Origin: Octopus vulgaris
Taxonomy: Eukaryota
Assembly: GCA_951406725.2 (NCBI GenBank)
Contig: OX597836.1
Span: 10,416,001-10,480,000, forward strand
DNA length: 64,000 nucleotides
Direction of reading: 5' to 3'
Below are positions 3,351 to 45,234 of this stretch, piece by piece; the first letter of the stretch is position 1, and every line of letters starts with the position of its first letter. Under the pieces are notes generated by a model. It ran no database searches. It had not been told where the DNA came from and was given only the letters and a program-made list of their open reading frames with translations. A program made the translations under genes and the position numbers.

Positions 3351-3744
3351 TACTCTTTTACTTGTTTCAGTCATTTGACTGCGGCCATGCTGGAGCACCG
3401 CCTTTAGTCGAGCAAATCGACCCCGGGACTTATTCTTTGTAAGCCCAGTACTTATCCTATCGGTCTCTTTTGCCGAACCGCTAAGTGACGGGGACGTAAA
3501 CACACCAGCATCGGTTGTCGAGCAATGCTAGGGGGACAAACACAGACACACAAACATACACACACATACATATATATACATATATACGACAGGCTTCTTT
3601 CAGTTTCCGTCTACCAAATCCACTCACAAGGCATTGGTCGGCCCGAGGCTATAGCAGAAGACACTTGCCCAAGATGCCACGCAGTGGGACTGAACCCGGA
3701 ACCATGTGGTTGGTAAACAAGCTACTTACCACACAGCCACTCCT
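3351..3744 (-). mobile_element. SINE family A (tRNA head, CORE-like body, internal microsatellite)
   Basis: A-box TGGCTGTGTGG, B-box GGTTCAGTCCC, CTTGGGCAAGTGTCTTC body and CCAGCATGGCCGCAG tail. Confidence 0.9.
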
Positions 3745-17314: not shown

Positions 17315-17800
17315 CAAGGTGTTTGCAAATCCAGTATCCGAGATACACTTTCAGTTTCATACCTATTATCACTGGAGCAACAGGATACACACCGAGCAAA
17401 GTATGGCTGAATTTTGGCATCTTGGGGAGAGAATGCAAATCCTTAATTCATACACTACAAATGACCACGATATCTGGGAGTATTAAAACCAGCACAACCT
17501 TCATGAGATTTAAAGATTGATGGTTAAAACAAGATGCTTTTCTTCATAATCTTGCCACCAAGAAGATAACAGGTCAATAGTTACTCTAAATTAAAAAGAG
17601 AAAGAAAACATACGTATATACAGTCGTTATTTTAACGAGATACATTCTGTAATCATCTGAAGAGACACATCTACACCGTCAGATACTCTTAAACAAGTTG
17701 TTAAGTATCCCACCCATGGGGGATCGATGCTAGATGTGTCGAAACAATTGTAGTGATTAATAAACATTCTCGTATCTTCCATCTTCCGTCTCTCTCTCAT
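17315..17800 (+). mobile_element. 5'-truncated R4/Dong-like non-LTR retrotransposon (end of RLE domain plus 3' region), followed by (CATA)n
   Basis: The translation LQIQYPRYTFSFIPIITGATGY...LIHTLQMTTISGSIKTSTTFMRFKD* resembles the C-terminus of restriction-like endonuclease ORFs (PIIxGAxG, SGxxKxxxTF). Microsatellites flank both ends. Confidence 0.6.
17650..17759 (+). ncRNA. Type I hammerhead ribozyme with a large branched loop on stem II
   Basis: Reads TAATCAT-CTGAAGA-GACACATCTA...TAGATGTGTC-GAAAC-AATT-GTA-GTGATTA. Stem I is 7 bp (one G-U), stem II is a perfect 10 bp, stem III is the palindrome ACAATTGT, and the cleavage triplet is GUA. Confidence 0.85.
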
Positions 17801-26731: not shown

Positions 26732-27265
26732 AATGCTTGCGTGGAACGTTACATCCCTGACTGGTTGAAGATTGTAAGTGTCGAACAAGATTTCGAATGC
26801 CTGGCACTGAATCTTGATCTACGTTTGACCCAGGACTGCAATTCCATCACAAAGACGAGCTGTGTGGAAAGATATACTTGACAAAAGATGACCACATCTG
26901 CTCACCGTCTGGGAATCCCTGCAGATACTGTTGATACAGCAAAGCTCATACATGCGTGTAGTCAACCACGGCACACTGAGGACGTTTTGAAGCGAGTGCC
27001 CAAATGCTTGGCACTCAATCTTGATCTCCACTTGGCCGAAGACTGCAGTTCCGTTACAGAGACGTGCTGTGGAAAGATATGTTTGACAAAAGACGACTAC
27101 ATCTGCTCACCGTCTAAGAATCTCTGCAGGTACTAAAGACATAGCTCAGATCATACCTACGTGTCTTCAACCACGGCAAACTGAGGACCTCTTGCAGAGA
27201 GTGCCGACAGCGGATCGACCTTTTGTGCAGTGGGACGTATCCACTCTACAAGAGAAGAAAGTTCA
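26732..27265 (+). mobile_element. Decayed RTE-like LINE C-terminal fragment with a ~207-bp tandem duplication
   Basis: Two diverged units start at about 26798 and 27005. One frame reads LGRRLQFRYRDVLWKDM...TVWESL...RSY...NHG, similar to RTE ORF ends, with several stops. Confidence 0.45.
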
Positions 27266-42871: not shown

Positions 42872-43189
42872 TATATATATATATATATATATATATTCAT
42901 GTATATATATATGTATATATATATATATATGTATATAATATTATTAGAGACAAAACCACTATTTTGCAAAACAAACATATGTATATATATATATATATAT
43001 ATACTAAGCAATAAAGGGTTTGGCAACGAATTGCCTTACCACATACCGAATTTAGAAATAGCAGTCAAAGAGTTATAGCTATTTCTTCTACTAAAAAGGG
43101 AGATCTCAGTAAAAACAGCAATTGTAAGGCAGACACAAACAGGTAAGAGAGAATGAATTGACGGCAATCTATCATACAATTTTAAGTTA

Positions 43190-43289
43190 TCTACGGACGT
43201 ACGTTTCGAAATCAAGTTTTTAGGAAAGCATAAGAATTAAATATTAAATAATTCTATCTTACCAAGAACTCTTTTCTCTTCAGCGTAGA
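43190..43289 (-). ncRNA. Type I hammerhead ribozyme, copy 1
   Basis: The minus strand reads TCTACG-CTGAAGA-GAAAAGAGTT...AACTTGATTTC-GAAAC-GTAC-GTC-CGTAGA. Stem I is TCTACG/CGTAGA, the core is CUGAAGA/GAAA, stem III is the palindrome ACGTACGT, and the cleavage triplet is GUC. Confidence 0.88.
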
Positions 43290-43782
43290 ATACTATAATC
43301 ATAAATGATTATATATTGAATTTTGAGATACTAGAAGGCATCATCTCAACTCAGTATCAGAGCGAGCTAGAATCCGCAACTAGTATCACCAAATTCAATG
43401 TGTGAATGAAAAGATTGTGTCACCAGCCCCTTCCCACCCGCGTGTAGCCAAAACAAGATGCTGTGGTCATCTACTGAGATAAAATATGGTTATCCGTAAT
43501 AATGAAGGGTGAAATTAATTAATTTGGAATAATTATCAATTACACCAAGTAGTCTTCGGCATGTAAAAGCCTCATTCGAGGAAAATTTAAGTAATACTAA
43601 GCAATAAAGGGTTTGGCAACGAATTGCCTTACCACATACCGAATTTAGAAATAGCAGTCAAAGAGTTATAGCTATTTCTTCTACTAAAGAGGGAGATCTC
43701 AGTAAAAACAGCAATTGTAAGGCAGACACAAACAGGTAAGAGAGAATGAATTGACGGCAATCTATCATACAATTTTAAGTTA

Positions 43783-43883
43783 TCTACGGACGTACGTTTC
43801 GAAATCAAGTTTTTAGGAAAGCATAAGAATTAAATATTAAATAATTCTATCTTACCAAGAACTTCTTTTCTCTTCAGCGTAGA
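43783..43883 (-). ncRNA. Type I hammerhead ribozyme, copy 2
   Basis: Same motif as 43190-43289 with one extra nucleotide in stem II. Confidence 0.88.
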
Positions 43884-43884
43884 A

Positions 43885-43955
<71 letters not shown>

Positions 43956-45234
43956 AATATATATAAATATATATATGTACATTTATATACATACATACAT
44001 ATGTATATATACGTGTGCACAGGTATTTAGCTATCTATCTATCTTTCTACATACGTACATATATACATACACACCGCACGCACGTACGCACGTACGCACG
44101 CACACACGCACACACACAATCATAAGATCCAAGGGTCTAAGTGTAGGAAGTCTGTAAGCTTCGAGCAGTCCATGGCAGGTATAAAAAAAAAAAACAACGT
44201 CCAAGAGCAATAACAATGATTCAGAGAACATCTGAAACGGATCGCGGTTTCAAATGTTGGCAGAAGCCAATGTAACCAGCCTAACACAATAACCCTGTCG
44301 ACGAAGATTTGATAAAAAAATAAATACGTAAATAAATAATATAAATGAATAAATAAATAAATAAATGTAAGAATGTATACCTACCAATAATGTATGTCCC
44401 CTCTCCTTTCCTCCTACCCTACCCACCCCGTATACCTCGTAAAAATGAGGAAATTAATAGTTAAAAGTATTTAAATTGCTTTGATATGAAAATGCTTATA
44501 AGTGTTTCACAATGCAAACATTGAGAAGGAAGACAAATATTTGACTCAGACGCGAACAATGCGTTGCATACAAAGACATGGGGATTATTTGGGGATTAAA
44601 GTAACAGATTATAAAAGAATTAAGATGGCGTAACGTACACACACACACGAACAGAGATATGTGTGTTTGCGAATATTTTTTCCAGGCGCAGGCGTGGCCA
44701 TGTGGTAAGAAGTTAGCTTCTCAACCGCACTATTCCAAGTTCAGTCCCACTGCGTGGTACCTTGGGCAAATGTTTTTAACTATTGCCTTGTGCCGCCCAA
44801 AGCTTTGTGACCTTGTGAGTCGATTTGGTAGACGGAAACTGAAAGAAACCCGTCGTGTGTGTGTATATTTATATATAAAAGTAGATAAATGGTACAAGGC
44901 ACCGATATTTACTGGAAAATATGTATATACTAGCATTATGACCCGTCGTTGCCGGGTCATAGTGCTAGTGCATGTATATATGTGTATATATATGTGTACA
45001 TATTACATGTACATCTATATATATATATACATCTACACATAAAATACAAAATACAAAGTTATATCTTGATATCGCTAGTGATAACAATACTCAAAATATA
45101 TAACAGACTGGAATTGTAAGCCCGTCTCTTGCAATTTCGATCAATTGGATCTTGTCCTCCCTCTTGTATAGAAGTGTGGCTTTCTCAAAATAACTTGTCC
45201 GACTGTCCCATAGGCCGAAAAAAATTAAAGCAAA

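Follow-up and report, generated by a model that had tools for sequence, protein, structure and literature searches.

A hammerhead-bearing insertion in a (TA)n tract

The window, a stretch of 64,000 nucleotides of the Octopus vulgaris genome, contains an 890-bp insertion that reads on the minus strand. Its parts are listed below, with monomer positions numbered in RNA sense, position 1 being the base that follows the predicted cut.

43001..43890, minus strand: whole insertion, ~103 nt + one 593-nt monomer + 195 nt, a single arm inside a (TA)n tract
43594..43890, minus strand: first (5') repeat copy, 297 bp; TATA microhomology joins its 5' end to (TA)n
43001..43296, minus strand: second (3') repeat copy, 296 bp
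43783..43883, minus strand: type I hammerhead 1, with stem I 43883-43878 / 43788-43783, CUGAAGA 43877-43871, stem II domain 43870-43801, GAAA and palindromic stem III; predicted cut 43789/43788
43190..43289, minus strand: type I hammerhead 2; cut predicted at 43196/43195; 21.1 bits with Rfam RF00163, short of the gathering score
43196..43788, minus strand: 593-nt monomer bounded by the two predicted cuts; folding z-score -5.9
43001..43009, minus strand: 3' end of the insertion, at start zone 1 (monomer position 195, the commonest end in the family), with TA microhomology to the target
43484..43499, minus strand: start zone 2 (monomer 290-305), where the family's 3' ends fall second most often; zone 1 lies ~100 nt away
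43622..43685, minus strand: stretch best conserved among the sister families (monomer ~104-167)
42981..43003, no strand: (TA)n target tract at the 3' end of the insertion
43888..44011, no strand: (TA)n target tract at the 5' end of the insertion

The two direct repeats lie 593 bp apart, as an initial annotation had described; they differ by one substitution and one single-base indel and have a private variant in common. That annotation was also borne out in that (TA)n tracts flank the insertion on both sides and that no open reading frame is present, the longest stop-free frame of the insertion being 66 codons. Each repeat bears the reported minus-strand type I hammerhead, composed of stem I (UCUACG/CGUAGA), the core CUGAAGA, a stem II domain of 69-70 nt closed by GAAA/UUUC, GAAA, the palindromic stem III ACGUACGU and GUC. 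The two predicted cuts would thus delimit a monomer of 593 nt (34.6% G+C). Rfam Hammerhead_1 (RF00163) matched the minus strand of 43190-43289 over the whole model with 21.1 bits (gathering score 34; E 0.0054 in a 171-base search) and a 65-nt local insertion in loop II; in a wider 7-kb search at E<=1, the window hammerhead was absent from the results. A window-wide repeat search was dominated by microsatellites, and a two-copy tandem repeat (205 bp, 80% alike) was observed at 26796-27205.

Thermodynamic modelling suggested a highly structured RNA. The monomer was predicted to fold at -160 kcal/mol (z -5.94), with 0/100 shuffled sequences equally stable, and in the modelled circle the pairing probability was 0.86-0.96 for stem I and 0.6-0.7 for stem II. 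The predicted lowest-energy fold of the 890-nt RNA pairs both palindromes and sets the core of copy 2 against the cut site of copy 1. The palindrome duplex was computed at -9.8 kcal/mol compared with +1.7 for the monomer hairpin, which is the expectation for a dimer-dependent hammerhead (PMC4209133).

A young family with diverged sisters

A 24-mer of the element (hereafter family A) gave 1,020 matches in the genome (2.8 Gb, 227 contigs) and a control gave 0. The initial annotation had called for a genome-wide search for tandem or permuted copies; the 40 scored of 2,004 candidates were all 96-100% identical, many of them in tandem or inverted arrays. Identity was 97-100% between copies on many contigs, and loci differed by 1.3%, in keeping with the annotated youth of the element. 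We mapped 88 loci, comprising 58 unbiased for length (from the first 100 of the 24-mer matches, on contigs C1-C3 only) and 30 picked from long genome-search matches. Arms measured from <100 bp to 3,510 bp, and 10 of the 58 unbiased loci had tandem hammerheads, two or more per arm. The 1.5-mer form noted initially is not a trait of the family, which ranges from <100 bp to ~6 units; 1.5 units is the length of the window copy only.

Three sister families were recognized: A' (mostly 85-94% alike, unit 583-591, 512 matches), B (~75% alike, unit 591-595, 1,799 candidates) and C (~65-70% alike, 78 matches to one 30-mer). At least 20 run entries from 7 studies and three organism labels contain the stretch; in contigs of putative RNA origin from four runs of two labels, one variant dominated. 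This variant, once considered as the mark of one expressed master locus, was rejected as such, since it marks the sister subfamily A' with its 512 matches. One family B locus (L086, 1291-1889) consists of three tandem ~197-bp copies of the start-zone region only, without a hammerhead.

The same hammerhead motif recurs in ~1,000 units. Stem I reads UCUACG/CGUAGA in family A, CCUACG/CGUAGG in A', CCAUG/CAUGG in B and ACUACA/UGUAGU in C, while the core is constant as CUGAnGA/GAAA and stem III is palindromic or nearly so; one alignment behind this comparison was judged by eye and contained one wrong-strand row. This recurrence, together with the compensatory changes in three diverged sister families, shows that the motif is more than a chance occurrence, and it suggests a ribozyme that may be under selection within a non-coding element. 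At monomer position 589, 18 of the 144 family A junctions have ACGUGCGU in place of ACGUACGU; this word self-pairs with two G-U pairs (-8.8 vs -9.8 kcal/mol for ACGUACGU).

Insertion ends carry the signature of Penelope-like elements

The 3' ends of arms were strongly concentrated. Among 135 arms, 77 ended at monomer 187-204 (zone 1) and 49 at 290-305 (zone 2), together 126/135, and outer 3' ends abutted (TA)n in 128 of 130 cases, while 5' ends were scattered. Head-to-head insertions had one end per zone in 40 of 44 cases, and the other four had one end outside both zones; single-arm insertions ended in zone 1 (33), in zone 2 (8) or elsewhere (1). Judged by eye, A' shows a matching end pattern. 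Family A thus displays hallmarks of Penelope-like elements (PLEs): two internal start sites, a tail on one end, an inverted 5' copy and a microsatellite target. In PLEs the tail is the stretch between two internal reverse transcriptase (RT) start sites downstream of the hammerhead cut (Frangieh et al., PMC11167929), and inverted PLE insertions carry it on one end (Craig et al., 10.1101/2021.04.23.441226; Arkhipova et al., PMC3846280). The interval of ~100 nt between start zones 1 and 2 is the equivalent of this tail. A stem-loop sits just upstream of start zone 1 within the conserved stretch 43622..43685 on the minus strand (monomer ~104-167), which is a candidate RT-binding element. An ACCCU-like word precedes each start zone; the word is very short.

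The insertion shapes indicate that copying was likely performed by Penelope-type transposon enzymes, and we are highly confident that family A is a non-autonomous hammerhead repeat mobilized by PLEs.

Circular or linear template

Because both start zones lie downstream of the cut, a cut linear monomer would limit arms to ~305 bp, yet arms reach 3,510 bp; anything longer than ~305 bp needs a template that is continuous across the cut. The cut-site junctions in the genome were mostly exact: 138 of 144 matched one of two family words, 4 differed by one substitution and 2 by an indel. A ligated circle would be predicted to have the same junction as genomic tandem copies. Small deletions or replacements straddling or abutting the predicted cut were seen four times (L286, L268, L269 and G000:C13:3106260) and possibly reflect imprecise ligation or template jumps.

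Sequence divergence, counted with 28 indel-prone columns masked, was 166/50,339 pairs (0.33%) for units within an arm, 184/42,018 (0.44%) for arms of one locus and 14,784/1,103,904 (1.34%) between loci. Comparison of units within loci at polymorphic sites gave 110 discordant pairs out of 4,943, compared with 822 expected from random units, and 33 loci resolved into 20 haplotypes. Of the locus-private variants, 14 were present in all units, 87 in one unit and 3 in some; private variants were fixed over 3 to 5 units at L141, L156 and L205. For a new variant to fill 3 to 5 units, a single unit must have been copied again and again, and we thus infer that monomer bottlenecks are frequent. With some reserve, we favour a circle as the usual template.

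The main competitor keeps the element and the PLE machinery and assumes a linear template, either uncut multimeric read-through RNA or 1.x-mers extended by homology-guided strand transfer between overlapping repeats, with the hammerhead serving only to trim the RNA slowly from host transcripts. This is the published in vitro model for an anole PLE (PMC11167929), and strand transfer on single-source RNA likewise predicts seamless junctions and one haplotype per array. Three arrays were mixed: at L203 haplotypes differ between arms, at L206 291G is found in the same unit of both arms and is absent from the next unit, and L008 has one 174T unit; the first two resemble copies of heterogeneous multimers. 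Against plain multimer copying stand the new variants that fill 3 to 5 units. Variants common to several loci also speak against it, 115 cases being uniform across the units of a locus and 17 non-uniform, as does the finding that no two loci had a non-uniform variant in the same register (of the four that recur, two are at CG sites). Strand transfer, for its part, has no need of a ribozyme, yet the hammerhead is kept across families that are 65-90% alike. We consider a linear template as the rule unlikely, though a serious contender.

The 5' ends at the predicted cut bear on both templates. Among the 135 arms of the locus sample, 10 have their 5' end within monomer 586-15, a region crossed by 145 passes; the excess is about twofold (p 0.04 for all loci and 0.12 for the 58 unbiased ones). 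Genome-wide probes for A and A' gave 5 ends exactly at position 1 vs 13 over the 12 upstream positions (p 0.0099) and 15 ends at positions 2-5 vs 9 at 8-14 (p 0.0082), a modest, hand-classified peak for which the bins were picked after seeing the data. The downstream probe, which has one discriminating position only, yielded 45 hand-sorted matches: the 15 and 9 ends above, 7 at positions 6-7 (6 = TA microhomology; excluded from the test) and 14 that were dropped (8 SNP or indel, 3 internal deletions, 1 chance match, 2 duplicates). The other probe yielded 28 matches, 10 of which were dropped (9 internal indels, 1 ambiguous). Matches were verified in their own loci for 30/45 and 25/28, the remainder being judged from the matched letters. 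We read the peak as a few per cent of templates having their 5' end at the predicted cut, the alternative being RT stalling at stem I. If some 5' ends halt at the cut, cut linear RNA is sometimes used, which speaks for the linear route.

A further explanation places the origin of the arrays at the DNA level, after insertion, by unequal crossover, slippage or gene conversion, or regards the window duplication as an assembly artefact. Local duplication would also yield one haplotype per array, the window repeats do have a private variant in common, and local amplification of PLE termini has been proposed by Li et al. (bioRxiv 10.64898/2026.07.22.740005). However, arrays end at the same two start zones as short copies and have non-integer unit numbers, and inverted arms carry private variants in common yet obey the rule of one zone each, all of which links the length of an array to its insertion. 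Moreover, the two window repeats are not identical. An assembly artefact is ruled out by tandem and inverted arrays on many contigs, and we regard this explanation as a whole as very improbable.

Autonomous PLEs and the search for a donor

The Octopus vulgaris genome contains two young intact PLEs with RT-GIY-YIG frames of 781 and 775 codons and many near-identical copies. In PLE 1, with a unit of 4,787 bp, the 781-codon frame contains a CxxxxCxxC linker and is accompanied by an upstream ORF. PLE 1 also has a minimal hammerhead of the U3-A8 kind and two ends spaced by ~44 nt; 8 copies are 96.6-99.5% identical at the DNA level. PLE 2 has a unit of 4,271 bp with a 775-codon frame and start sites 143 and 189 nt after its own hammerhead, and in its inverted insertions the start sites were mixed in 15 of 18 cases, the behaviour seen in family A, and the same in 3. 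The two PLEs would be of the Neptune/Nematis type, a label given by the linker motif according to Craig et al. and not by a tree, and are candidates for the enzyme donor. Individual copies were also noted. PLE 1 at L061 (930-6172) has two ORFs and short internal repeats in its 3' untranslated part. PLE 2, at L323 (G000:C1:27840300-27850200) and in further matches, is very young, with two ORFs, copies 99.5-100% identical and arrays of both tandem and inverted type; in the copy inspected, CCGAAGA forms the core of its hammerhead.

A PLE partner sharing the repeat, as the initial annotation had proposed to search for, was not found: the family profile had no match in the two PLE units, and in 51 PLE loci it matched only fragments in flanking TA tracts. 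Profile and BLAST searches for sequence common to families A, A', B, C and both autonomous PLEs returned AT-rich noise only. A diverged fragment beside a PLE in L038/L081 was considered as a common pLTR and rejected, being a separate insertion in TA. The search for more distant PLE proteins yielded unnamed relatives of the same type only and no donor.

The unit could nevertheless be the pseudo-LTR of an unsampled autonomous PLE, with the copies as its truncated 3' ends. Every structural hallmark of family A is that of PLE ends, and the sampling covered 150 scored GIY-YIG candidates of 6,136 and <1/5 of the family A units. Yet long copies circle the 593-nt unit up to ~6 times rather than entering an ORF, 122 PLE proteins had no match in the element, and three PLE proteins matched only 1 of 259 family loci (overlapping loci included), as a separate neighbouring insertion. 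The 4,787-bp and 4,271-bp PLE units have no homology to the element, and the possibility that it is only the pLTR of a known autonomous PLE, named in the initial annotation as grounds for refutation, found no support. We give the pseudo-LTR explanation very little credence. As no PLE ORF adjoins family loci beyond the one separate neighbour, the element is non-autonomous as far as sampled.

Proposed mechanism

The circular template is part of the explanation that we prefer: a young non-coding 593-nt hammerhead family that is a non-LTR retrozyme, likely mobilized in trans by a Penelope-like RT-endonuclease and probably from a predicted circular monomer RNA, an explanation to which we assign a probability of roughly 0.6. 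The initial annotation had called the element a candidate retrozyme, and this reading agrees with a non-coding tandem unit, a conserved type I hammerhead, no adjoining PLE ORF, PLE-type insertion anatomy and mostly exact junctions across the cut. Its description as replicating stood in the sense of retrotransposition in trans; for RNA-to-RNA replication nothing was found.

In the proposed sequence of events, a minus-strand transcript over two units would fold into a dimeric hammerhead and be cut after GUC. Ligation would then close the monomer into a circle, by analogy with the retrozymes of coral, mussel and axolotl; in the circle, a single palindromic stem III would be too weak for renewed cutting. 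As the genomic pattern shows, insertion into (TA)n starts at an internal site ~195 or ~298 nt downstream of the cut; where both target strands are extended, each arm takes a different site, giving a head-to-head insertion with a tail on one end. RT would round the template up to ~6 turns and so generate single-haplotype arrays; in a few per cent of cases it would meet a cut 5' end and halt.

A stronger version, which we hold tentatively and at slightly less than even odds, is that the family is a genomic record of rolling-circle reverse transcription. One PLE complex would prime both strands of a cut (TA)n target on a single circular ribozyme RNA, using two fixed sites, and take several turns on each. 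The result would be head-to-head arrays of a single haplotype, in which an occasional stop at the self-cleavage site would betray germ-line ribozyme activity. If this is true, PLE hammerheads gain a function, the making of circles, that the only in vitro system has missed, and the cis-signal would be structural, since there is no sequence in common with the autonomous elements.

Both the template, circle (PMC4209133, PMC7229834) or uncut multimeric RNA (PMC11167929), and the job of the hammerhead are debated. The circle route has been proposed for PLEs and animal retrozymes (PMC4209133, PMC7229834), whereas in the in vitro work of Frangieh et al. (PMC11167929) insertion did not require hammerhead cleavage, and these authors favoured multi-copy unprocessed RNA. 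Li et al. (bioRxiv 10.64898/2026.07.22.740005) observed cleavage in only 1 of 9 Xenopus dimers. Family A makes the question testable through population-level read-outs: arrays of a single haplotype, junctions that are exact, a slight excess of stops at the cut and a rule of one site per strand. The same genome offers two intact candidate enzymes, and the 593-nt substrate is small enough for in vitro work.

Relation to known elements

The element has the testable defining features of metazoan non-LTR retrozymes (PMC7229834; bioRxiv 10.64898/2026.07.22.740005; PMC7761336). The class is already known. Shared with this class are non-coding tandem units with a type I hammerhead each and a weak palindromic stem III (PMC7229834; bioRxiv 10.64898/2026.07.22.740005), a G+C content <45%, a highly self-paired monomer, dispersed monomers to multimers, and PLEs alongside. 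The 593-nt unit is larger than the ~170-400 nt of studied invertebrate retrozymes and is covered by the vertebrate range of 51-972 bp; the 65-nt loop II is atypical and, like the Rfam score below threshold and the lack of sequence in common with either autonomous PLE, counts against the preferred explanation. Homology to a pLTR, not found for family A, has been reported for 21 of 57 Xenopus retrozyme families and is hence not obligatory. PLE-type start sites, tail and head-to-head structure are documented for family A and were not met in the sections of the metazoan retrozyme papers considered here; the family ties a retrozyme to PLE machinery through insertion anatomy and not through co-occurrence or pLTR similarity. 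Expression and circles are known for metazoan retrozymes from other animals and would be predictions for family A. No cephalopod retrozyme was found in the literature searched, with Repbase/Dfam and some supplements outside the search, and the family may already be catalogued; the main text of a recent octopus repeat annotation (PMC13282606), in the part considered, has no occurrence of "hammerhead" or "retrozyme".

Like EN+ PLEs (Poseidon PAc, PMC11167929; Neptune/Nematis and Naiad, 10.1101/2021.04.23.441226; rotifer Penelope, PMC3846280), family A shows two internal start sites for RT that lie downstream of the hammerhead cut, carries its tail on one end, forms partial tandems and a 5' inverted copy, and has an AT-rich or (TA)n target. 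Unlike them, it is without an RT and GIY-YIG ORF, its tail measures ~100 nt vs 30-46 nt, and its hammerhead has the canonical C3-G8 and a 6-bp stem I where EN+ PLEs have minimal variants. Plant LTR retrozymes resemble it in being non-autonomous, in having two hammerheads that flank a monomer of similar size and in the circular intermediate proposed for them (bioRxiv 10.64898/2026.07.22.740005). Their hammerheads, however, are of type III, their LTRs are true ones that include PBS/PPT, their target duplications span 4 bp and their partners are Gypsy elements (bioRxiv 10.64898/2026.07.22.740005), where family A has type I hammerheads, permuted tandem units and PLE-type ends at two start zones.

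Other hammerhead-like repeats

A third type I hammerhead-like motif was observed in the window at 17652-17757 on the plus strand, with CUGAAGA, a 77-nt stem II domain, the palindromic ACAAUUGU and a GUA site. It is unrelated in sequence to the 593-nt unit and probably represents another hammerhead repeat family. Elsewhere in the genome, hammerhead repeats with different stems were seen at L109 (752-1474, period 482), L062, L236, L246, L247 and L081 (~3415-3500), with stem III of the ACAUGUGU and ACACGUGU types in those other than L109, indicating that the genome contains several more hammerhead families.
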